From: a virus
Direction: 5' to 3' (one strand)
Length of the DNA stretch: 64,000 nt
Virus record (IMG/VR): IMGVR_UViG_3300022555_002641
Coordinates: 32,001-96,000 of that record
The notes under the pieces were generated by a model that did not search any database, had not been told where the DNA came from, and saw only the letters and a program-made list of their open reading frames with translations. Shown in pieces: positions 11,258 to 50,935 of this stretch. Position numbers and translations under genes: made by a program. Each line of letters begins with the position of its first letter. Positions within the stretch are counted from its first letter, which is position 1.

Positions 11258-12208
11258 ATGAATATTCAAAGTGCATCAATCGTAATTCCCACACATAACA
11301 GTTGTGTTAACAAATGCCCGTTCTGTGTGAGCCGAACCCACTGTAATCTTTATCAAAACGATATTTCAAAGACTAACGAATTTGAAGCATTCAAAAAATT
11401 TGGTGAATTGATATATAGCAAAAAGCAAAATTCAATTGAATTTCGGGATTACTTCAATCGGTTGCAATTTACCCGTAATAATGGATGTAACGTGGCAATT
11501 TTAACTGGCACTGGTGAGCCTCCGCAAAATATTAAATTCATCGAATTCTTCATGAATATTAATGAAACACTCAAACTACCGTTTGAAAATATTGAAATAC
11601 AAACAACTGGAGTGATGTTGGATGAAGGAATTATTCAGCACTTACGCCAGATTGGATTGACAACAATGGCGTTTTCAATATCCAATATTTTCAATAATGA
11701 TCGGAACCTTGAGCTCATCGATTGTAATGAAAACCTGAGATTTGATCTGGAAAAACAGATTGAACTTGTCAAAAAATATAAATTCAATTTGCGCCTTTCA
11801 TTAAATCTGGTGAATGATTATGACCGTTGCTCTGTTCCAGAAGTATTGCATCGTTGCAAAGAACTTGGTGCACATCAGGTAACATTTAGAAAGTTATACA
11901 AATCAGACACCAATACTGAAATTGATCAGTGGATTGAAGAAAATTCATCAAAGGAATTTTACCCAAAGCTTGTAGATTATATTATGGGTAAGCATGATAT
12001 TGATCCAATTGTGCGCTCAGGCGGTCACGGTCGGCTGATTGGGATTCTTCCTTTCGGTGCCAAAATATGGGACATTGATGAAATGTCTGTTGTTCTTGAC
12101 GATGATTGTATGAACGAAGAAGTGAAGGACACTTATAAGTATCTTATTCTGAGGGAAGATTGCCGCTTGTATTCAAAATGGGAAACTAAAGCCAGCTTGA
12201 TTTTTTAG
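11258..12208 (+). CDS. radical SAM protein
   Basis: CxxxCxxC (CVNKCPFC), LTGTGEP, EIQTTG. Confidence 0.85.
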   Translation: MNIQSASIVIPTHNSCVNKCPFCVSRTHCNLYQNDISKTNEFEAFKKFGELIYSKKQNSIEFRDYFNRLQFTRNNGCNVAILTGTGEPPQNIKFIEFFMNINETLKLPFENIEIQTTGVMLDEGIIQHLRQIGLTTMAFSISNIFNNDRNLELIDCNENLRFDLEKQIELVKKYKFNLRLSLNLVNDYDRCSVPEVLHRCKELGAHQVTFRKLYKSDTNTEIDQWIEENSSKEFYPKLVDYIMGKHDIDPIVRSGGHGRLIGILPFGAKIWDIDEMSVVLDDDCMNEEVKDTYKYLILREDCRLYSKWETKASLIF

Positions 12209-13098: not shown

Positions 13099-13352
13099 AA
13101 ATTAGAATTGAACAGGATAAATACGATCAATTTCAAAGTAAATGTGAACAGAAGGACAAAACAATGAGTGAGGTCCTTCGAAATTTTATGAAACTTTACA
13201 ATGATTATGATAATACAATAGTATTCAATTTAGATGATAAGATGCTAAATGATGTTGCTATTTTTTGTAAAGATAAAAAAATAAAATTCAACGATCTTAT
13301 CAAGCTATTAATTGAACGAACAATTAATAATAAAGATAATTTCAATGCATAA
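13089..13352 (+). CDS. ribbon-helix-helix-type DNA-binding protein (possibly tandem)
   Basis: LKIRIEQ...KTMSEVLRNFM pattern, repeated in the second half. Confidence 0.6.
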   Translation: MFLKIRIEQDKYDQFQSKCEQKDKTMSEVLRNFMKLYNDYDNTIVFNLDDKMLNDVAIFCKDKKIKFNDLIKLLIERTINNKDNFNA

Positions 13353-14019
13353 AAAAGAAAAATGTTATCAAAAATCCTATCGTGGTAAATACGTTGATTT
13401 TTACCCAAAGGTTTCAAATTTCGCATTACAATACGATTTAGCTGGATATTTCGATCCCCGCCCACAAATTCATATTTGCTTGGGCTGGGGTAATCTATTT
13501 ATAAATTTACCATTCAAATCTAAATATAATGAATGCGAACCGCCACGATATGGAGTTTATTATCATGAACGATGCTTCTGGTTCCCACATGGACGAAAAA
13601 TATATTGCTTACATTTACCTTTCGAATATGATTGGGTTAGAACAAGCTATCTTCGTTCAGATAATACTTGGGAAAATGAAACAAAAAGTAATAGCAAAAA
13701 TTTTTGGAAGGATGAAGAATGGAAGGATATTCTCTGGAAAGAAGTGTATCCTTACACGTATACATTGAAAAATGGTACATCTCAAAACAGACAGGCAACA
13801 GTTAAAGTTGTTGAGCGTGAATGGAGATGGCGATCTTTTAAATGGACTAAAATTACAGCAATGAAAAGACGTGTGATAGACATTGAGTTCGATGATGAAG
13901 TTGGAGAAAGATCAGGATCATATAAAGGTGGTTGTATGGGATGTAGTTATGATTTACTACCAAACGAAACGCCTTTAGATGCCTTAAGGAGAATGGAATC
14001 CGAAAGAGTTTTTAAATAA
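13345..14019 (+). CDS. hypothetical protein
   Basis: W/Y-rich ORF; likely start is the ATG overlapping the previous stop. Confidence 0.7.
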   Translation: MHKKEKCYQKSYRGKYVDFYPKVSNFALQYDLAGYFDPRPQIHICLGWGNLFINLPFKSKYNECEPPRYGVYYHERCFWFPHGRKIYCLHLPFEYDWVRTSYLRSDNTWENETKSNSKNFWKDEEWKDILWKEVYPYTYTLKNGTSQNRQATVKVVEREWRWRSFKWTKITAMKRRVIDIEFDDEVGERSGSYKGGCMGCSYDLLPNETPLDALRRMESERVFK

Positions 14020-14434: not shown

Positions 14435-15043
14435 ATGGCAAAATTATATTTTAAGTATGGTGCAATGGCTTCTGGTAAATCTGTGGATTTGCTCAAAACG
14501 AATTTTAATTATACTGAGTATGGGGAAAAAGTTATCTGCTTGACATCAGCAAAAGATAATCGATACGGACAAGGAAAAATTGCATCAAGAATTGGAATTC
14601 AAACACAAGCATTATCTGTGTATGAAAATATGAATGTATATGATTTAATATATAATTTTTGGAAAGCAGCTATGGATGATGGAACTAAAATATCGTGTGT
14701 ATTGGTTGATGAAGCCCAATTTTTCACAAAATCCCAAATTTTTCAATTATCAGATATTGTTGACAGCTTAAATATTCCAGTAATGTGCTATGGAATAAGA
14801 TCAGATTCTAATTTGGAATTATTTGAAGGATCAAAGCAACTACTTGTATTGGCAGACACTATTGAAGAAATAAAAACGATATGTGCAAATTGCCGATCAC
14901 ATAAGGCTATAATTAATGCTCGTTTTAATAACAATAAAATTATTGAAAGCGGCCCACAAATTCAGATTGGCGGGAATGAAACCTATCGATCATTATGTAG
15001 AAAATGCTATAAAAAAGAAATAGAAAAAAATGCAAAGTTGTGA
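14435..15043 (+). CDS. tdk: thymidine kinase
   Basis: YGAMASGKS, VDEAQF, CYGIRSD, Zn-binding C...CRKC, QIGGNETY. Confidence 0.95.
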   Translation: MAKLYFKYGAMASGKSVDLLKTNFNYTEYGEKVICLTSAKDNRYGQGKIASRIGIQTQALSVYENMNVYDLIYNFWKAAMDDGTKISCVLVDEAQFFTKSQIFQLSDIVDSLNIPVMCYGIRSDSNLELFEGSKQLLVLADTIEEIKTICANCRSHKAIINARFNNNKIIESGPQIQIGGNETYRSLCRKCYKKEIEKNAKL

Positions 15044-16538
15044 TGTGAGTTCTTGTAATATAATCAGGACAATGCTTAATTCAAGCATGATGCCGAGTTT
15101 CTTATTAGAAAAAGATGGTACCATAATAACATTGAACGATAAAGCACTACCATATGTTAGGGCAAAAAGTCAAATGGATGTCATAGGAAAAAAATTAGAA
15201 ACTCTTATTGATGATGTTCTATATGAAGAATTAAGAAAAGTAATGCTTGAAGCTATATTCAGGGGTAAGTTCGTGACTTTCAATTATTATTGTAAAGAAT
15301 CCAAAAAAACATATGAAATTTTATGCACCCCAATTCATGATGAAAATCTTGGGTTTTCAGACAATATAGACTTTATATTCTTACACATATTTGATATTGA
15401 TATGATGAAAGTTATTAATCCCCCACAGGAAGATTCCAACGATATTCTCAAATCAACTTTCCTTTCAAACATTTCACATGAACTTAAGACTCCAATGAAT
15501 ACTATAATTGGATTTTCGGATTTGTTATTACTTCCACAATATAAAGATAATATTAGCCGTGATAGGTTCATAAAAGCTATAAATACTAATGCTAAGCACT
15601 TAGAAGAATTGCTAAATAATATTTTAGATTATGCAAAAATAGAAGCTGGGCAGTTAGATTTTTTATATGAGAATTTTGAAATTGGTGATATTTTTTGTGA
15701 TTTGAAATTACTTTTTGAAGATATTAATCTTCAAAAAAATCAAAAAAGTGTTAAATTAATTTTCAAAGACCAGAATACGAAAATAGTGTCAGATCAATTT
15801 AGAATTAAACAAGTCTTACATAATTTATTAAGTAATGCGATTAAATTTACAGATAATGGCACAATTGAAGTCGGATGTACTCCTGACTTTGAAAATGCAA
15901 CGATTAAATTCTATGTTAAAGATACTGGTATTGGAATTCCAGACAATCGAATTGATTTAATTTTTGATCGATTTGTCCAAATTGATTCTTCCCCAACCAA
16001 AAAGAATAAAGGTACAGGACTTGGGCTATCCATAGCAAAAAATATTGTAGAATTATTAGGTGGTACAATTTGGGTTGATTCTGTATTTGGTAAAGGTAGC
16101 ACTTTTTATTTTAGAATCCCATTAGAAGAAATTCAAGATGATATAACATTAAAAACTAAACATGTAGACGAATCAATAACATACGATAATAAAGTTATTC
16201 TGCTTGTGGATGGTATTCCAGATAACTACTCTTTATTAAGTATTATGTTAAAATCTAAAGGAATTAGATGCATATATGTAGATGATGGAGAAGAAGCCAT
16301 TAACATTTATAGAAAAGAAAAAAAAATTATTGATGCTGTTTTTTTAGATATTAATTTGGCAACAATAAACGGATTTGAAGTAGCAGAAAAGATTAAACAA
16401 ATTAATAAAAAAGCTACTATAATATCAATATCTGAAATTGATGTTAAAGATTCAAGATTTATAGATTATTATATGTCAAAGCCTTATACAAGGGGTAAGT
16501 TGTTAGATATCCTTAAACAAATATTTACTAATGGATGA
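15030..16538 (+). CDS. hybrid sensor histidine kinase (PAS-HisKA-HATPase-receiver)
   Basis: H-box SHELKTPM, N-box NLLSNAIKFT, DTGIG, GTGLGL, then receiver (LLVD...FLDINL...SKP). Confidence 0.9.
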   Translation: MQSCDVSSCNIIRTMLNSSMMPSFLLEKDGTIITLNDKALPYVRAKSQMDVIGKKLETLIDDVLYEELRKVMLEAIFRGKFVTFNYYCKESKKTYEILCTPIHDENLGFSDNIDFIFLHIFDIDMMKVINPPQEDSNDILKSTFLSNISHELKTPMNTIIGFSDLLLLPQYKDNISRDRFIKAINTNAKHLEELLNNILDYAKIEAGQLDFLYENFEIGDIFCDLKLLFEDINLQKNQKSVKLIFKDQNTKIVSDQFRIKQVLHNLLSNAIKFTDNGTIEVGCTPDFENATIKFYVKDTGIGIPDNRIDLIFDRFVQIDSSPTKKNKGTGLGLSIAKNIVELLGGTIWVDSVFGKGSTFYFRIPLEEIQDDITLKTKHVDESITYDNKVILLVDGIPDNYSLLSIMLKSKGIRCIYVDDGEEAINIYRKEKKIIDAVFLDINLATINGFEVAEKIKQINKKATIISISEIDVKDSRFIDYYMSKPYTRGKLLDILKQIFTNG

Positions 16539-21186: not shown

Positions 21187-22500
21187 TTAAAGAATTGTCA
21201 AAATTCATCCACGATGTCTTTAGCATCGTGGATGAATTTTGACGAACAGGTTTGAAAATATATTTTTGAAAAAAATGACTTTTTAGATTTAATATATATT
21301 TATGAAAAAGGAAAAGTTTTCATAAGTTATGTTAAAATCGTTTAAATATAGAATCTACCCAACACAGGAACAAAAAGATTTGATGCAAAAAATCTTTGGT
21401 CAGGTTAGATTCGTGTATAATCTTGGATTGGAAACCAAAATAACTGCTTATAATGGTAATAAGAAAAATATAACCAGTATAGACCTTTCAAACCAAATTA
21501 AAGAACTTAAAGATACTGAATGTCCTTGGTTAAAAGAATCACCGTCACAGGCATTACAAATGTCTGTACGAAATCTGGATAACGCTTATACAAACTTTTT
21601 CAGGGGATTTGGTTTTCCAAAATTCAAGAACAAACATTCAAAACAATCATTTCAGTTGCCACAAGGAGTTTGGTTATCAGATGACAATAAACAAATTTAC
21701 TTACCTAAACTTAATTTGGTTGGTATAGATTTACATAGAATATTTAAAGGCGATATAAAAACCGTAACAGTATCAAAGACAATAACAAATAAATATTATG
21801 TTTCAATTCTGGTTGAAAATCATCAAATTAAACCAGAAAAGAAACTAATAAAATTAGAAAGTAGTGTTGGTATAGACCTTGGTATCAAGGATTTTGTGAT
21901 TACATCAGATGGAAAGAAATTCGAGAACAAAGATTTCTTTAAATCTGTGATGCGAGAACTTCGTGTTGAACAAAGGTCACTATCAAGGAAAAAGAAAGGT
22001 AGTAATCATTATTTGAAACAAAAAATGGTTGTTGCCTTACTTCACGAGCATATCAGAAATCAAAGACAGGATTATCTACATAAAATATCTAAGTATCTTG
22101 TTGATAACTATGATACTATTTGTATGGAAAATCTCAATGTGTCTGGGATGGTTAAGAATCATAATTTAGCCAGAGCTATATCAGATATGGGTTGGAATGA
22201 GTTCAAGTCTATGATTGAATATAAGTGTGATTGGTATGGAAAAAATTTAAGTGTGATTGGTAGATTTGATCCATCCAGTAAAACTTGTAATGTTTGTGGA
22301 ACAATCAATAAAGACTTGAAACTATCAGACCGTGAATGGACTTGTAAGAAATGTGATTCAACACACGATAGAGATACCAATGCTGCGTTAAATATAAGAA
22401 ATTTTGGGTTGAGGAACCATCCCAGCGTCACTCAAAGTGAATGGTTACATTGTGCTTGTGGCGTAGAAACTACGACATCTTTAGTGTCGTAGTAGTTCAT
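21187..22500 (+). mobile_element. non-autonomous IS200/IS605-family (IS1341-like, TnpB-only) element
   Basis: Left-end 20-bp perfect hairpin at 21197-21243 and right-end hairpin CTACGACA-TCTTTAG-TGTCGTAG share the loop TCTTTAG. Ends ...GTTCAT; preceded by TTTAT (putative TAM). No tnpA. Confidence 0.8.
21329..22492 (+). CDS. tnpB: RNA-guided endonuclease TnpB
   Basis: KYRIYPT HTH, RuvC I GIDLG, RuvC II ENLNV, Zn ribbon CxxC...CxxC, RuvC III DRDTNAA. Confidence 0.95.
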   Translation: MLKSFKYRIYPTQEQKDLMQKIFGQVRFVYNLGLETKITAYNGNKKNITSIDLSNQIKELKDTECPWLKESPSQALQMSVRNLDNAYTNFFRGFGFPKFKNKHSKQSFQLPQGVWLSDDNKQIYLPKLNLVGIDLHRIFKGDIKTVTVSKTITNKYYVSILVENHQIKPEKKLIKLESSVGIDLGIKDFVITSDGKKFENKDFFKSVMRELRVEQRSLSRKKKGSNHYLKQKMVVALLHEHIRNQRQDYLHKISKYLVDNYDTICMENLNVSGMVKNHNLARAISDMGWNEFKSMIEYKCDWYGKNLSVIGRFDPSSKTCNVCGTINKDLKLSDREWTCKKCDSTHDRDTNAALNIRNFGLRNHPSVTQSEWLHCACGVETTTSLVS

Positions 22501-29671: not shown

Positions 29672-31621
29672 TTAAATTTGTATTTTTAATTGAACTGATA
29701 TATCTCCGCCAGCCATCGTATTTCCAACTTGATCTACATCTATTGATAAAATATCCCCTTCTACAAGTGAAGTTGTATCAAAATTTGATTGAGTTCCATA
29801 AGTTTGCCCACTTAAAATTTTTAATCTATTGGATTGTGTAATATTCCATATACTCACACCATTTATATTTATATCAAAAATATCGTCCGTTCCTTGTGGG
29901 CCAGTTCCAGAACTAACATATGCTTTCAATATTGTTCCTATATACGGAACTATTACTCTTGTTTTATTAGTTCCAGTTGTTAGTGCTGTACCTACTGCTA
30001 ATAAAAACGTAATATTAGATATACCTAAACCTGAACTACCTGAAGTTCCTGATGATCCAGAATTACCATCTATCCCAGATGTTCCTGAAGACCCTGATGA
30101 CCCAGAATTACCATCTATCCCAGATGTTCCTGAAGACCCAGATGTTCCTGAAGACCCAGATGTACCATCGATTCCTGATGTTCCTGAAGACCCTGATGAC
30201 CCAGAATTACCATCTATCCCAGATGTTCCTGAAGACCCAGATGTTCCTGAAGACCCAGATGTACCATCGATTCCTGATGTTCCTGAACTTCCAGATGATC
30301 CTGATATACCGTCAATTCCTGAACTTCCCGAACTTCCTGATCCTCCATCAGTCCCAGAACTTCCAGAACTTCCTGAACTTCCTGTTCCTCCATCAGTTCC
30401 AGAACTTCCTGAGCTCCCTGAACTTCCTGACCCATCAGTCCCAGAACTACCTGAACTTCCTGAGCTTCCTGTTCCACCATCAACCCCAGAACTACCTGAT
30501 GTGCCATCAGTTCCTGAACTGCCTGATGAACCTGAACTACCGTCAACACCTGATGAACCTGAACTACCAGAACTTCCTGAACTACCAGAACTTCCTGATG
30601 TGCCATCAGTTCCTGAACTGCCTGATGATCCTGAACTACCTGAAATTCCAGCACTTCCTGATGTGCCATCAGTTCCTGAACTGCCTGATGAACCTGAACT
30701 ACCTGAAATTCCAGAACTACCTGATGTGCCATCAGTTCCTGAACTGCCTGATGATCCTGAACTACCTGAAATTCCAGAACTACCTGATGTGCCATCAGTT
30801 CCTGAACTGCCTGATGAACCTGAACTACCAGAACTTCCTGATCCATCTGTCCCTGAGCTTCCTGAACTACCTGATGACCCATCGGTTCCAGAACTACCTG
30901 ATGATCCTGAAGAACCAGCTCCACCATCAGCACCAGAAGAACCAGAAGAACCAGAACTACCTGAAGACCCAGTTCCGCCATCGGTACCCGAAGAACCAGA
31001 ACTACCTGATGAACCAGTTCTACCATCAGTGCCTGATGACCCAGATGACCCTGAAGAACCATCTGTACCTGATATTCCAGAAGAACCTGATGTACCATCA
31101 CTACCCGATACTCCTGAAGACCCAGATGTACCATCACTCCCTGATATTCCTGATGACCCAGATGTACCATCACTACCTGAGCTTCCATCAACACCAGATG
31201 TTCCTGAAGTTCCAAAATTTGCGCCATCAACCCCTGAAGAACCTGACGTACCAGAAGTTCCAGAAGTGCTTGTCTTTCCACTATAATTCCAATCTTTATC
31301 GGGGGAAAACAGAATTGTTGTTGCCCCACTTGTTATAATACCTGTAGTAATTGTATATTTACCAATACCCAAACCAATAGCAACGGCAGTATAATCAGCA
31401 TCAGTATTTGGAGTTCGACCACCTTGAGTGTTTCCAGTATAATCAAAAGTAAAATAAATTGAAGTCCTTCCAGACACATATCCAGTAATTGGATTCCCAT
31501 CAGAATCTTGAATTAAGATAGCATTATTGGTTCCAAAAGAATTTGTAAAATAAATCCAATATTTAGATTGCTGATCATTAGCAAGATAATTGTTAAATAA
31601 TATATTACCAGTAGACATCAA
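29672..31621 (-). CDS. Gly/Ser-repeat (G-x-x) fibre-like virion protein
   Basis: About 410-aa (GSS/GTS/GTD) triplet repeat between globular N- and C-terminal domains; TATATA box upstream. Confidence 0.8.
   Translation of the reverse strand: MMSTGNILFNNYLANDQQSKYWIYFTNSFGTNNAILIQDSDGNPITGYVSGRTSIYFTFDYTGNTQGGRTPNTDADYTAVAIGLGIGKYTITTGIITSGATTILFSPDKDWNYSGKTSTSGTSGTSGSSGVDGANFGTSGTSGVDGSSGSDGTSGSSGISGSDGTSGSSGVSGSDGTSGSSGISGTDGSSGSSGSSGTDGRTGSSGSSGSSGTDGGTGSSGSSGSSGSSGADGGAGSSGSSGSSGTDGSSGSSGSSGTDGSGSSGSSGSSGSSGTDGTSGSSGISGSSGSSGSSGTDGTSGSSGISGSSGSSGSSGTDGTSGSAGISGSSGSSGSSGTDGTSGSSGSSGSSGSSGSSGVDGSSGSSGSSGTDGTSGSSGVDGGTGSSGSSGSSGTDGSGSSGSSGSSGTDGGTGSSGSSGSSGTDGGSGSSGSSGIDGISGSSGSSGTSGIDGTSGSSGTSGSSGTSGIDGNSGSSGSSGTSGIDGTSGSSGTSGSSGTSGIDGNSGSSGSSGTSGIDGNSGSSGTSGSSGLGISNITFLLAVGTALTTGTNKTRVIVPYIGTILKAYVSSGTGPQGTDDIFDININGVSIWNITQSNRLKILSGQTYGTQSNFDTTSLVEGDILSIDVDQVGNTMAGGDISVQLKIQI
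30030..31270 (-). repeat. low-complexity 9-bp-period coding repeat
   Basis: cctgaacta/cctgatg-type units, including longer perfect internal duplications. Confidence 0.95.
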
Positions 31622-31736: not shown

Positions 31737-32231
31737 ATGGAATTCTTCAATAATAAAGAAAACGAAAATCTGAAATTTAAAATAAATAGCGAAGGTATCG
31801 ACACAGAAAAAGTTGAGCCAAGACTTATATTAACAACAAAAGAAAATAAGAATTACTTATTCTTCGGGGAAATTCACAATGGTGTTTGTAAATTTAATAT
31901 TCCAGAATTGGGACTATATGAAAAAGGAGAGCAGGGAAAGATTAGATTTGAAATTATATCCGAAGATTTGTATTTCCCAGTATGGCAAGATACTTTTGAA
32001 ATTAAATCAAAAGCTTCAATTAAGATAGAAGAAATGATTTCTGAAATTAACAAAGAAACAATTAAAACAAAGGCTAAAATATCTTCTGAAATTATCAGGG
32101 ATATTAAACCAGAACCAAAAAAAGAAGCACCAGTATTTGAAAAATTAAAAGATACAAAACCAGAAATAAAAACTGTAGCAAAACAAGATTTAAAATCCGA
32201 TAATAAAATAAAAGGATTTGAAGATTTCTAA
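31737..32231 (+). CDS. hypothetical protein ending in KIKGFEDF
   Basis: AATATATA box upstream. Confidence 0.7.
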   Translation: MEFFNNKENENLKFKINSEGIDTEKVEPRLILTTKENKNYLFFGEIHNGVCKFNIPELGLYEKGEQGKIRFEIISEDLYFPVWQDTFEIKSKASIKIEEMISEINKETIKTKAKISSEIIRDIKPEPKKEAPVFEKLKDTKPEIKTVAKQDLKSDNKIKGFEDF

Positions 32232-32505: not shown

Positions 32506-33292
32506 ATATTATGTTTATATTTATTTAGACCCTCGAAAAAAAGGAAAATTTATATATGGTGATTTAGAATTTGAATATGAACCTTTTTATGTTGGGAAGG
32601 GAAAAGGTGATAGAATTTATAGGCATTTGCATTTATATAAAAGTGATTATACAAATGAATATAAATATAATAAAATAAGAAAAATAAAATTAGAAAATTT
32701 AGAACCAGTAGTTATAAAAATTTTCGATAATTTAGATGAAAAAAACGCATTTAAAAAAGAAAACGAAACAATTTTAAAAATTGGAAGATTGAAAAACGGA
32801 CCATTAATAAATTTTAGTGATGGTGGGGAAGGTCAAAGTGGTTATAAACATCGTGAAGAAGATAAAAAGAAAATCGGAGAACGTGTAAAAAATTCAGAAA
32901 AATGGCAAATCGCAATAAAAAGTGATGAACATAAAAAGAATTTAAGCAAATCTTTAATGGGGCACGAGGGACATGTATTTATCCATAGTGATAAAGCTAA
33001 AGAAAAAATAAGAATTGCTCAATCTGGAAATAATAATTCATTTTATAAAAAAACTCACACAAAAACTCTTAAAAATAAATGGAGTAGTGAGCGAAAAGGA
33101 AATAATAACCAGAATTCAGTATTATATGAAATTAAATCCCCAATTGGCGATATACTGAAATTTAAAGGTATGAACGAAATAAAAGATTATACCAGTAAAA
33201 CTAAATTGTTTAGTCCTACCAGTATAATCAAATATGGAATTTCTAAAGGATATCAAATAATATCCAAAATCAAATTAAACAAGATTTTTTAA
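32498..33292 (+). CDS. GIY-YIG homing endonuclease with NUMOD3-type repeats
   Basis: YYVYIY...FYVGKG, N-x-S-D-G-G-E-G, HREEDKKKI / HSDKAKEKI repeats. Confidence 0.85.
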   Translation: MNEYYVYIYLDPRKKGKFIYGDLEFEYEPFYVGKGKGDRIYRHLHLYKSDYTNEYKYNKIRKIKLENLEPVVIKIFDNLDEKNAFKKENETILKIGRLKNGPLINFSDGGEGQSGYKHREEDKKKIGERVKNSEKWQIAIKSDEHKKNLSKSLMGHEGHVFIHSDKAKEKIRIAQSGNNNSFYKKTHTKTLKNKWSSERKGNNNQNSVLYEIKSPIGDILKFKGMNEIKDYTSKTKLFSPTSIIKYGISKGYQIISKIKLNKIF

Positions 33293-34171
33293 TTTCAATG
33301 CTCTTAATAATCTCGTTAAACCGCAACCACATCCATACCTATTAATCATAGTTAAATTCAAGAACTCTTCTAATTCTTTTTCAACCCTATCTTTACCAAA
33401 TTCATTATAAAGTAATTTAGCATACATTCCATCTGATATTGTATGAAAACTATTTCTCATTTGAACTACATCCACAGACCTTTCAGCCGATCCAAATGTT
33501 TCTTGACCGCAAATTATAAAATCACATTTATTGAATATTTTTTCATTGGTTAAATTACTATATCCATTGTTTTTCATATTAAAAAACGGGGAAGTTCTCT
33601 CAGGAAAATTTATAATTCCAACAACATCCCCATACTCTTTCCATAATCTGGTTTCTTGATCAGATTCTAAATAGTTAACTCCATATTTAATACATAATTC
33701 ATCATATGTAAATATAGGAATATTATCAACAGAATCAATAAATCCCATATATACTGCTAATTCACTAAGAGTATTTATGAGGTCTGAAAATATTCCTTTG
33801 TGCTCAAATTCCCACATGGGGAACGTTAAATCGTGTCTGCCTGGTATAGGGGCTGGCTCATCACGATATGATGCGGTTAGACAAAAAAGTCCATCCAATT
33901 TATCAGCATACATCATTAATTCTTTTTCCAAATGCATTTGTGAAGTTTGGGGAAGGGGCCAAATATCACCATCAAAATTAAAACTCCTAACTGTTTTTGG
34001 GTCTTCACACGCAGCTAAGATACTTAGCCGTGATTGTGGAAATGTTTCTAAATAACCTTTTTCAATAAAAAACCCTCTCAACTTTGATATCATTTTGTTA
34101 AAGTCTTGAGGGTCAATGATTTTCTGTTCGTAAACTCGTTTGTTCATGGGCATTTTTTTTTTAGAAGGCAA
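33275..34171 (-). CDS. class II aminoacyl-tRNA synthetase catalytic-domain protein (AsnRS/asparagine synthetase-like, no anticodon domain)
   Basis: LPQTSQMHLE, motif 2 SYRDE...GRH...FPMWEFE, ETFGSAER, motif 3 GCGCGLTRL. Start position uncertain. Confidence 0.75.
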   Translation of the reverse strand: MPSKKKMPMNKRVYEQKIIDPQDFNKMISKLRGFFIEKGYLETFPQSRLSILAACEDPKTVRSFNFDGDIWPLPQTSQMHLEKELMMYADKLDGLFCLTASYRDEPAPIPGRHDLTFPMWEFEHKGIFSDLINTLSELAVYMGFIDSVDNIPIFTYDELCIKYGVNYLESDQETRLWKEYGDVVGIINFPERTSPFFNMKNNGYSNLTNEKIFNKCDFIICGQETFGSAERSVDVVQMRNSFHTISDGMYAKLLYNEFGKDRVEKELEEFLNLTMINRYGCGCGLTRLLRALKLKNLV

Positions 34172-48024: not shown

Positions 48025-48708
48025 ATGGAAACTATAATTATTGAAATTAGAGCATCCGAAGGTGGAAATGACTCTAAATTATTAGTTAAGGATTTAGCAA
48101 GTATTTATACAAAATCTTGCCGCAACAATAACTTCAGCTATAAAGTTGAAGAAAGAGAAGGCTTTGCCTCCATATGAATAACAGGAAATGAAGTAAAATC
48201 TTACTTCAAAAATGAAAGCGGCTCTCACTGCTTCGTCCGAATTCCCCCAACAGAAAAATATAATAGAACACAAACAAGCTTTATAACGGTAGCTATTATG
48301 CGACCTGATATAAAGAAGGACATCATTTTGAATAGAAATGATGTCATAAAAAGTTATATAAAAAGTAGTAAAAAAGCGGGAGGACAGCATTTGAATAAGA
48401 CTTCGTCATGTTGCCAATTAACTCATATTCCAACTGGAATCATGCTTAAAGTACAGGATACAAGGGATCAGCACAAAAATGAAACTATTGCGTGGGATAG
48501 GCTTACCGACAAACTTCAAGAAATTAATGATAAATTTCATGACTCTAATATAAATTCACATAGAAACGGTCAGATTGGAAATGGTAGCCGTGGCGGAAAT
48601 AAAAGACGAACTTATCGAATCAAAGATGATATCGTAGTTGATCATATAACTGGGAAAGAATGTAGATGGAAAGATATATTAAAAGGTAGATTAGAACTTC
48701 TTTTCTAA
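48025..48708 (+). CDS. RF1-type peptide chain release factor lacking domain 1, with in-frame TGA at 48175-48177
   Basis: METIIIEIRASEGG...EGFASI*ITGNEVKSYFKNESGSHCFVRIPPTEKYNRTQTSFITVAIM...AGGQHLNKT...RRTYR: PxT and GGQ motifs in one frame across the TGA. Confidence 0.85.
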
Positions 48709-49543: not shown

Positions 49544-50935
49544 CCGTTAAAAAAAATCTACACAAATCTACACCTGTGTAATTTTCTCTTCTTGTTTCAA
49601 CCAATCGATATTGTGATTGTCCACAAGCGTAAATTCGGTAGAACGGCTACCTATTATTATTTTTAATCCTTCTTTCTTGATATTAATGGCTGCATTTAAG
49701 TCCCTGTTATGATTTGTTTTACAATCAGGACAAATCCATTCTCTATCTGATAATGTTAATTCCGTGTTTTTATAACCACACACATTACATAATTTACTCG
49801 AAGGAAACCATTTATCTACTTCAACAACATACCTACCATACCAATTAGCTTTGTAAATCAACATTGATTTAAAATGATTCAATGATAATTCTTGAATTGA
49901 CCTCGCTAATTTATGGTTTGACATCATATTCTTTACACTAAGGTTTTCCATCGATATAATTTGGTTTTCATTAATCAATTGGTTACTAACTTGATGTAAA
50001 TAATTTTCTTTGATGTTGTTTAAATGTTCGTGATATTTAGCTAATTTTTTTCTACATTTATTTTTGTTTTTACTACCATTTGTTTTCTTTGATAACTGAC
50101 GATTTAATTTTACTAATTTCTTTTCATTATTTCTTTTTATCTTTATGTTTTCAAATGTTTTACCGTCTGAACAGATAATGAAATCTTTTATTCCAAGGTC
50201 AATACCAATCACTTCGTTGATAGGTTTTAATACTTGTTTTTCTAATTCACCATCAATCAAAACTGATAAAAAGTAATTACCCGATTTTGTCTTGGTTAAA
50301 GTTGCTGACTTAATACCAGATTTATATTTATTTAAATAAATTTTATATTCATCTGAACATCTGAATTTGACATTTTTTAGTGATTTTGTCAAGGTCAGTT
50401 TACCAGTGGAATAATCATTGTTTGATGATATGGCTTCCTCTGGAAATCTACAGGATTGTTTGTTATCGTGTTTAGATTTAAACTTAGGAAATCCACTACC
50501 ATTAACAAAAAAGTTTTTGTATGATTCTAACATATTTAGAATTGATTGTTTGAGTACCTTTGTGTTATGTTCAGTTAAAAAATGATAATCAGCATCCTTA
50601 GTTAATTCATTATGAAAGTAATGTCCTAAATGAGTTAATGTAAGATTCGATTTATCATTCAGGTAAGCTGTTTTCTTTTTATCCAGACATTTATTGTAGA
50701 CAAGTCTATAACAACCAAGTAATTGATTAATATAATCCTGTTGGATTGTTGTTGGATATAAACGAATTTTAACTGCTCTTAACATATGTTTTTATAGTTT
50801 AGGGATAAAATATCCCTTTTCTATAAATACTATATATTAAAGTAAAAAACTCATTTTTTGATAATTTATTTTAACTTGTAGATTTGTGTAGAATTGTGTA
50901 ATTTTGTGTAGATTTTTGGTAGCAGTTACTTAACC
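49544..50935 (-). mobile_element. non-autonomous IS607-like TnpB-only element
   Basis: Ends carry tandem 10-bp repeats (AAATCTACAC x2 at about 49555-49573; TGTGTAGATT-like x4 at about 50877-50917) in inverted orientation. AACC (GGTT on minus) at both boundaries fits a GG-core serine-recombinase crossover. Confidence 0.75.
49568..50785 (-). CDS. tnpB: RNA-guided endonuclease TnpB
   Basis: KIRLYPT, GIDLGIK, ENLSV, CNVCG...[14 protein letters not shown]. Confidence 0.95.

Follow-up and report, generated by a model that had tools for sequence, protein, structure and literature searches.

An in-frame UGA in a phage gene for an RF1-like release factor lacking domain 1: a candidate readthrough switch within a family of interrupted genes

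Introduction

How, and to what end, would a phage express a translation termination factor whose own reading frame is interrupted by a stop codon? This question is raised by a gene for a class-I release factor (RF) at positions 48025 to 48708 (plus strand) of a stretch of DNA of 64,000 nucleotides from a very large freshwater phage, i.e., positions 32,001 to 96,000 of the IMG/VR record IMGVR_UViG_3300022555_002641. This whole stretch, here called the window, lies within one contig of 121,682 bp with 32% G+C (G000), and the virus record is about 17% complete according to CheckV. The answer favored here, with a probability of about one half for the whole statement including the sensing role, is that programmed readthrough of the internal UGA would tie synthesis of the factor to poor UGA termination, i.e., to the activity of host RF2.

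The textbook case of recoding is the programmed frameshift through which RF2 regulates its own synthesis. A simpler version, based on readthrough in the 0 frame, was predicted decades ago and is reported never to have been seen in RF1 or RF2 genes (PMC5009743). In the available passages of that review, there is no RF2 gene with an early in-frame UGA followed by an open reading frame (ORF) in the same frame, the UAG/RF1 counterpart is called unknown, and the sole viral case is the eRF1 of giant viruses (Atkins et al., 2016; PMC5009743). The sequence comparisons described below suggest that the 0-frame version of this gating does exist; it appears to be widespread in phages, beside versions that shift frame at TGA, TAG, or TAA.

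Gene Organization and Authenticity of the Internal Stop Codon

The frame opens with an ATG at 48025 and counts 227 codons, including an in-frame TGA at codon 51 (48175 to 48177; context TCC ATA TGA ATA ACA), which is the proposed recoding or sensor codon. The 50 codons 5′ of it (ORF1, 48025 to 48174) match the Pfam domain PCRF unaided, with 29.1 bits against a cut-off of 24. The same-frame continuation of 176 codons (48178 to 48705) encodes the rest of domain 2, domain 3 with the GGQ motif and domain 4, and runs up to the terminal TAA at 48706 to 48708. For DNA with 32% G+C, the chance that a frame stays open for 176 codons after a random TGA is about 1e-6, as estimated from base composition. 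In the protein read through the TGA, Pfam finds both PCRF (profile positions 101 to 194 of 194) and RF-1. The PxT-type “peptide anticodon” is Pro-Pro-Thr, encoded by CCC CCA ACA at 48244 to 48252 (residues 74 to 76), and P74, P75, and T76 are invariant in alignments A2 and A3. The peptidyl-tRNA hydrolysis motif GGQ is encoded by GGA GGA CAG at 48379 to 48387 (residues 119 to 121). The start, the in-frame TGA with its context, and the PxT and GGQ motifs are as a previous analysis of the DNA letters (the sequence-only reading) had described them. An internal start giving a separate C-terminal product was rejected, as the first ATG, GTG, or TTG 3′ of the TGA lies 40 codons downstream, inside conserved protein sequence.

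The TGA itself is well documented. Contigs from all four other sequencing runs that were compared, which belong to three other studies, span the site with no differing letter at 48175 to 48177. One of these runs contains a variant that differs at 36 places over 901 bases (about 96% identity) and keeps the TGA; counted from the listed positions, its changes inside the gene are mostly at third codon positions. In comparisons with the closest relatives, ORF1 shows a nonsynonymous divergence (pN) of 0.06 to 0.14 and a synonymous divergence (pS) of 0.62 to 0.81, the latter being near saturation. For the part downstream of the stop, pN is 0.22 to 0.27. Both sides of the TGA are under strong purifying selection. 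The 13 runs listed as containing the stretch include no RNA run.

A sequencing error or a recent nonsense pseudogene, which the sequence-only reading had kept in view, is refuted by the TGA in the four runs, by the low pN on both sides and by the interruption of 89 of 93 relatives. With a stop kept across saturated synonymous divergence and no relaxed selection on either side of it, the probability left to such an explanation is virtually nil. On this evidence, the gene is very probably intact and functional and would depend on programmed recoding for the synthesis of the complete protein.

Interruption Across the Gene Family

To place the gene among its relatives, 93 distinct genes from phage records, IMG/VR, and bacterial assemblies were scored at the DNA level. 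Their loci were retrieved by conserved peptide patterns and not by the stop, so that the sample is unbiased toward interrupted genes. The 89 interrupted genes are broken within or just before the codons that correspond to codons 36 to 51 of the query. In 60 of them, a single 0-frame stop has to be passed; ten have two such stops, 16 require a +1 shift and three (L004, L009, and L132) have a partial or atypical shift motif. The four uninterrupted genes (L026 and L122–L124) all have a G+C content of at least 0.66. Three of these, L122–L124, are copies on three contigs of one Myxococcales metagenome-assembled genome (MAG). In five of the five genomes searched, there is exactly one gene with an RF-1 domain, and it is always the interrupted one.

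The 80 internal 0-frame stops, all at query codons 36 to 51, comprise 77 TGA and 3 TAG codons, and the next base is A in 47, G in 20, and C in 13 cases but never T. As the sequence-only reading had asked of the homologs, the stop at codon 51 itself is conserved, since 18 other distinct genes have TGA or TAG at this codon, always flanked by Ile or Leu codons. These flanks bring up a different route past the stop, in which peptidyl-tRNA-Ile leaves the ATA before the TGA and re-pairs on the ATA after it. Such a +3 hop would give a protein that is one residue shorter, and it draws on the identical flanking codons found in the window (ATA TGA ATA) and in L006, L016, L011, and L021. These are, however, only five of the 17 aligned genes (16 of which carry the stop; L008 has Ser), the flanks are unrelated where the stop is at position 36/37, 39, or 43, and Ile or Leu on either side is accounted for by the β-strand at this place. 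Hopping is thus highly improbable compared to readthrough of the codon.

Tryptophan is the residue usually inserted at UGA. In a large group of genes with intermediate G+C content, the TGA at codons 36/37 follows a Gly codon, at the place where bacterial RF1 has “KGW.” A single G-to-A change, from TGG to TGA, would create the stop in this context, and readthrough with insertion of Trp would restore the residue. In the protein database, full-length entries exist for 56 of the 120 relatives listed, of which 46 have W at the position of the stop and ten have T, L, I, or C. One of these entries, P0010, is identical to the L006 protein with both TGA codons translated as W. This indicates that the W residues are gene calls made with code 4 and do not stand for TGG, the DNA check covering the retrieved loci. 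Gene calling either breaks these genes in two or applies code 4 to them, so that the family is systematically mis-annotated.

In the 16 genes that need a +1 shift, the junction reads CTT-stop-C, with TGA in ten, TAG in five, and TAA in one. L010 and L003 have GGAGG or AGAGG, a spacer of 3 nt (GGT), and CTT TGA C, which is the architecture of the prfB frameshift site, and the prfB-type feature is present in L035 and L125 as well. Near-identical genes can differ in the stop codon at the shift site, as L127 and L128 do from L126 and L132 (TGA vs. TAG), and L022 and L024 would need one UGA and one UAG readthrough. The two kinds of device differ in base composition. The G+C content of the locus ranges from 0.25 to 0.62 (median 0.41) for genes of the stop type and from 0.33 to 0.72 (median 0.60) for genes of the shift type.

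An unusual arrangement is seen in L009 (LR756511, a phage of 595 kb), where the RF body lacks its own start codon (L009:2880-2990). A strong ribosome binding site and an ATG open the peptide MKKKVKNQVCL, which ends at CTT TAA C. A +1 shift there would open 16 codons up to CTT TGA C, where another +1 shift would lead into the RF frame. This gene may therefore contain two +1 shift sites in succession.

Around the stop at position 51, RNAalifold gave an empty consensus structure for 17 sequences. Folding of single sequences gave z-scores from −3.4 to +0.8 compared to mononucleotide shuffles. A selenocysteine reading, with a selenocysteine insertion sequence (SECIS), was dropped for lack of a conserved RNA structure at the stop.

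Genetic Code and Suppressor tRNAs

An in-frame TGA could also point to a recoded genome. With the standard code, 118 ORFs of at least 100 aa cover 84% of the contig, and they end in TAA (81), TGA (27), or TAG (10). The tdk gene and a fcl-like gene end in TGA and a cca-like gene ends in TAG, on which grounds global recoding had been discounted by the sequence-only reading; the statistics of ORF ends agree. Extension of the 27 ORFs that end in TGA to the next stop adds only 0 to 41 codons. Forty-one TGA codons have at least 40 open codons on each side, and the translations on either side look like parts of one protein at the RF site only. A stricter filter for pairs of ORFs in the same frame retains three TGA cases, among which the RF gene alone has a long continuation without an early start.

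Related genomes were tested likewise, i.e., the closest one (G003, 211 kb), a second one that is rated 100% complete (G002, 354 kb), and the complete genome LR756502 (W01, 642 kb). For ORFs chosen by length, the ends in TAA, TGA, and TAG number 83, 31, and 11 in the contig of the window, 179, 58, and 13 in G003, 241, 100, and 24 in G002, and 513, 104, and 126 in W01, and the share of TGA among them is 14 to 27% across these genomes. TGA is an ordinary stop in the contig and in the three relatives, which use the standard code. Code 4 or any other recoding was rejected for all four, as TGA ends ordinary genes and splits only the RF gene.

A tRNA with anticodon UCA, the suppressor that the sequence-only reading had offered as one way past the stop, was found neither among the 7 tRNAs of the contig nor among the 67 of G003, the 49 of G002, or the 46 of W01. 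This bears on the possibility that the gene is a timed switch, which a UGA-reading tRNA of the phage or the host, or partial recoding of TGA, turns on late in infection, as has been proposed for recoded phages. Phages with a recoded genome have been described whose “code-change modules” include RF1 (Borges et al., 2021; 10.1101/2021.08.26.457843), the contig is a fragment, and G002 encodes a tRNA with anticodon CUA. However, two of the four genomes without tRNA-UCA are complete (G002 and W01), 14 to 27% of the long ORFs end in TGA with no gene but that of the RF split by this codon, and a suppressor tRNA could not serve the variants with a +1 shift. In addition, the RF gene of Jade phages is reported to be in standard code, according to the available text of the same source. 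A timed switch is consequently considered very unlikely, and readthrough by an ordinary tRNA remains the preferred reading.

Some further observations concern the tRNA genes of these phages. The tRNA with anticodon CUA, of the amber-suppressor type, lies at G002:C1:174391-174465 (minus strand), in a genome with ORF statistics of the standard code and TGA as the gate of its RF gene. In G003, ARAGORN calls two tRNA-like sequences with abnormal anticodon loops, “gcca” and “gt” (G003:C1:90792-90874 and 12128-12198). The contig of the window has seven tRNA-Leu genes in a 1.4-kb cluster outside the window (G000:C1:116328-117746), with the anticodons tag, cag, gag, taa (twice), aag, and caa; they cover every type of Leu anticodon and are the only tRNA genes on the 121.7-kb contig. 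A large tRNA array surrounds or adjoins the RF gene in W02 (LR756501, 358–367 kb), G002 (280–302 kb), and G003 (63–73 kb), but not in the contig of the window or in LR756502.

Structure and Class of the Release Factor

The structure of the complete protein was modeled with AlphaFold2 from an alignment of 35 sequences, with a predicted local distance difference test score (pLDDT) of 88.4. In a Foldseek search, the model matched ribosome-bound RF1 with a template modeling score (TM) of 0.90 and a root-mean-square deviation of about 2.0 Å, RF2 with a TM of 0.89, and PrfH with a TM of 0.65. Residues 1 to 50 are modeled as a strand (2–10), a helix (15–34), a second strand (38–44), and the start of a third (47–54), in the domain 2/4 sheet. 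Codon 51 lies in the middle of this third strand and not at a domain boundary. As residues 1 to 50 are integral to the predicted fold, the part downstream of the stop alone would be an incomplete domain.

The protein lacks domain 1, as had been noticed before. Its match begins at position 105 of 347 of the RF1 profile NF001859 and at position 113 of 361 of TIGR00019, and only 0 to 26 open codons precede the gene in the closest relatives. According to one study, neither codon recognition nor peptide release depends on domain 1, whereas stimulation by RF3 does (PMC1586002). By analogy, a compact release factor that works independently of RF3 is plausible.

Curated profiles do not assign the protein to a known class. 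It scores 161.3 bits against a cut-off of 400 and 152.1 against 423.25 with the two RF1 profiles, 123.6 against 370 with the RF2 profile TIGR00020, 69.2 against 166.65 with the PrfH profile TIGR03072 and 32.3 against 100 with the ArfB profile NF006718, thus failing all of them. The order of the scores is RF1, RF2, PrfH, and a sequence search of PDB gives the same order. Identity with ArfB was rejected, in view of the PCRF domain and of the score below the cut-off.

A careful maximum-likelihood tree of 30 rows was built from residues 55 to 227, i.e., downstream of every recoding site. The tree is unrooted, and its eight bacterial sequences were labeled from their motifs (five PxT, three SPF) and from record names of the phage collection. 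The 22 rows of the family split from the five RF1 and three RF2 sequences with support 100/98, while RF1 (97/90) and RF2 (100/100) are each coherent; a quick tree of 96 rows agrees. Judged from this unrooted tree with eight bacterial sequences, the family would be a lineage distinct from bacterial RF1 and RF2 that has an RF1-like PxT motif. Of the earlier designation “RF1-type,” the motif therefore stands, and membership of bacterial RF1, given the failed cut-offs and the position outside the clade, does not.

Release factors with a PxT tripeptide read UAA and UAG, but not UGA. The SPF tripeptide of RF2 is absent from the window protein, which has PPT in its place, as nearly all members of the family do. 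L010 (LR745208) and L031 lack the PxT tripeptide and have a shortened recognition loop (HRVQRTSNGRIHSS and GGHRWMRDRTGKVHTS); their codon specificity may be different or relaxed. In the subgroup of the window gene, residues 66 to 85 (48220 to 48290) read GSHCFVR..PPT..RTQTS, compared to GGHR[IVW]QR..PxT..R[IV]HTS in the other groups and in RF1. At two positions that we take to contact the stop codon, Gln and His are replaced by Val and Gln in this subgroup.

These altered residues would fit direct autoregulation, in which the phage factor terminates at its own gate codon, by reading either UGA despite its PxT motif or all three stops, and thereby closes a loop like that of prfB. The separate position of the family in the tree, the full prfB-type cassette in members with high G+C and the use of TGA, TAG, or TAA as the gate, even in near-identical genes, all point the same way. 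P-P-T in nearly all members nevertheless predicts specificity for UAA and UAG under the tripeptide rule, and direct autoregulation is on balance judged unlikely.

Proposed Mechanism and Its Strength

In the preferred reading, i.e., readthrough gated by UGA termination, the ribosome would have to pass the UGA at codon 51 and stay in frame for the full-length factor to be made. The likeliest route would be near-cognate readthrough by a host tRNA. Termination and readthrough would then compete at codon 51. Output of the factor would rise when UGA termination is slow, because host RF2 is limiting, inhibited, or titrated during infection, and with efficient termination it would fall, leaving a short product of 50 residues. 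The complete product would presumably act as an RF3-independent release factor that reads UAA and UAG. Feedback could be indirect, in that more termination capacity at UAA and UAG would free RF2 for UGA codons. By analogy, the gate may be regarded as the 0-frame counterpart of the +1 frameshift switch of prfB. Sequence comparison thus suggests readthrough as the mechanism and RF2, or else general termination capacity, as the variable that would be sensed. The strongest support for a sensing role comes from the relatives that use the prfB cassette, whose function in sensing is known.

Several elements weigh against this reading. A PxT factor is expected not to read UGA, so that the feedback loop closes only indirectly. 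The gate codon varies, with TAG at 3 of the 80 internal stops and at 5 of the 16 shift sites, TAA at 1 of the 16 shift sites, and near-identical relatives (L127 and L128 vs. L126 and L132) differing between TGA and TAG. Because the gate of the family is not specific to UGA, the pure reading as a cross-sensor of RF2 is weakened: of the earlier proposal, the dependence of expression on programmed readthrough is well supported, and a gate made of UGA only is not, given the TAG, TAA, and prfB-like +1 shifts in the family. Furthermore, ten genes need two readthroughs and would thus make extremely little protein at ordinary readthrough rates. The variable gate codon and the genes with two stops would be better explained if general termination capacity were sensed, or if the factor read more codons than RF1 does. 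Lastly, no conserved stimulatory RNA structure was found by RNAalifold in the 17 sequences, and the contig is only about 17% of the genome, so that a suppressor tRNA may be encoded elsewhere in the phage.

The low output expected from two stops, found in 10 of the 93 genes, would also suit a fixed attenuator, i.e., a stop that restricts a factor with possible harmful effects to a very low and constant level and senses nothing; the genes with two stops would then represent extreme down-tuning. Overproduction of RF1 and especially of RF2 is reported to lower the fitness of Bacillus subtilis (Prince et al., 2025; PMC12421855), and the failure to find a stimulatory RNA structure is in line with an attenuator. 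Yet a weak start signal or promoter would do equally well. The family has instead retained devices that rest on a stop codon, placed at several sites and working by two different mechanisms, including the prfB cassette, which is a known sensor, and T never occurs as the fourth base in any of the 80 stops. A sensing device is therefore preferred over a fixed attenuator, the latter being rather improbable.

A broader reading would accommodate the variable gate as well. The family could form a lineage of its own in phages, the third among class-I release factors of the bacterial type, that lacks domain 1, is independent of RF3, and is gated by recoding at any stop codon, through 0-frame readthrough if the phage is AT-rich and through a +1 shift like that of prfB if it is GC-rich. 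This reading is put forward tentatively and is held to be somewhat doubtful as a whole. It would imply either an ability of the factor to read all three stops or a surveillance by phages of the overall termination capacity of the infected cell, which they would top up. If true, RF genes of the bacterial type would here show a natural 0-frame readthrough switch for the first time, and an RF1-like gene would for the first time be gated by UAG. The family forms a natural series in which to study three questions: the variable measured by termination sensors, the evolutionary passage between readthrough and frameshifting, and the reason why large phages bring an RF3-independent factor of their own.

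Comparison with Known Systems

The closest functional parallel is prfB. Both have an early in-frame stop inside a class-I RF gene, with output set by competition between termination and recoding, and members of the phage family with high G+C have the same cassette of a Shine–Dalgarno-like sequence and CUU UGA C. The window gene differs in its site, ATA TGA A, after which the 0 frame goes on, so that readthrough is needed; it has neither a slippery CUU nor a +1 shift. The site of prfB is at codon 26 or so, before domain 1, whereas here it lies in domain 2, at codons 36 to 51, and the prfB product has the tripeptide SPF in place of PxT. Moreover, the prfB shift motif in 8,164 genomes has TGA in 98.6% and TAA in 1.4% of cases and TAG in none (0/8,164), while some members of the phage family use TAG. 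In prfA, no programmed recoding was found, according to the available text of the same study (Prince et al., 2025; PMC12421855).

The class-I RF of Mimivirus and Megavirus is likewise a viral termination factor that passes internal stops, by a combination of readthrough and frameshifting that has been read as autoregulation in the sections available (PMC3521657). That factor is, however, of the eukaryotic/archaeal eRF1 type and belongs to viruses of amoebae, whereas the present one is a bacterial-type RF of phages, usually with one device per gene, in a large and diverse family.

With bacterial RF1 (prfA), the protein shares the PxT-type motif, GGQ, the fold of domains 2 to 4 (TM 0.90), and the best-scoring profiles. 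It differs by the absence of domain 1, by a score of 161 against 400 bits, by its position outside the RF1 clade, and by the presence of recoding. PrfH (RFH), which is paired with RtcB2, also lacks domain 1, has about 200 to 230 residues, and keeps GGQ. Here, in contrast, the canonical PxT loop is kept, TIGR03072 is below its cut-off and the match in fold is weaker (TM 0.65). Among the 46 ORFs of at least 150 aa in the window, Pfam detects no neighbor of the RtcB family.

Recoded phages (Lak, crAss-like, and Jade) encode RF1 or RF2 homologs that have been linked to manipulation of termination. They have a stop reassigned throughout the genome and suppressor tRNAs, while the present phages have the standard code and, in the contig and three relatives, no tRNA-UCA. 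In the part of the work that is available, RF genes are reported only in recoded phages (Borges et al., 2021; 10.1101/2021.08.26.457843). RF1 and RF2 are named among the genes of huge phages in the accessible portion of Al-Shayeb et al. (2020; PMC7162821), where internal stops are not mentioned. A search of full-text literature found no description of recoded phage RF genes; the supplementary tables of Al-Shayeb 2020 and Borges 2021 could list them.

Genomic Context and Other Features

The closest relatives of the RF gene sit in records of uncultured phages of 485 to 735 kb, and the genes of the contig are phage-like as well, with ClpP, a ClpC-like ATPase, GIY-YIG homing endonucleases, TnpB, a NAD-dependent ligase, tdk, and a homolog of Acb3. 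Two relatives occur in Bacteroidota MAG bins, which gives a weak assignment of the host. Small ORFs neighboring the RF gene, those upstream of it included, had no matches in PHROGs. No obvious Shine–Dalgarno run is present in the A/T-rich 30 nt upstream of four genes, i.e., tdk, the fcl-like gene, the cca-like gene and the ORF downstream of the RF gene, and a scan for sigma-70-like promoters returned 11 sites where 15.1 were expected.

Other genes of the window are of interest in their own right. The homolog of Acb3, an inhibitor of the cyclic-oligonucleotide-based antiphage signaling system (CBASS), lies at 13312 to 14019, and a hybrid histidine kinase with a receiver domain at 15030 to 16538. 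A collagen-repeat protein is encoded at 29672 to 31621, where the G+C content is locally raised to 0.40. At 33275 to 34171, there is a protein of 298 aa that resembles class-II aminoacyl-tRNA synthetases and lacks the anticodon-binding part. TnpB genes of the IS605-OrfB type are found at 21329 to 22492 (plus strand) and at 49568 to 50785 (minus strand), the second of which follows the RF gene after about 860 bp, in the opposite orientation.

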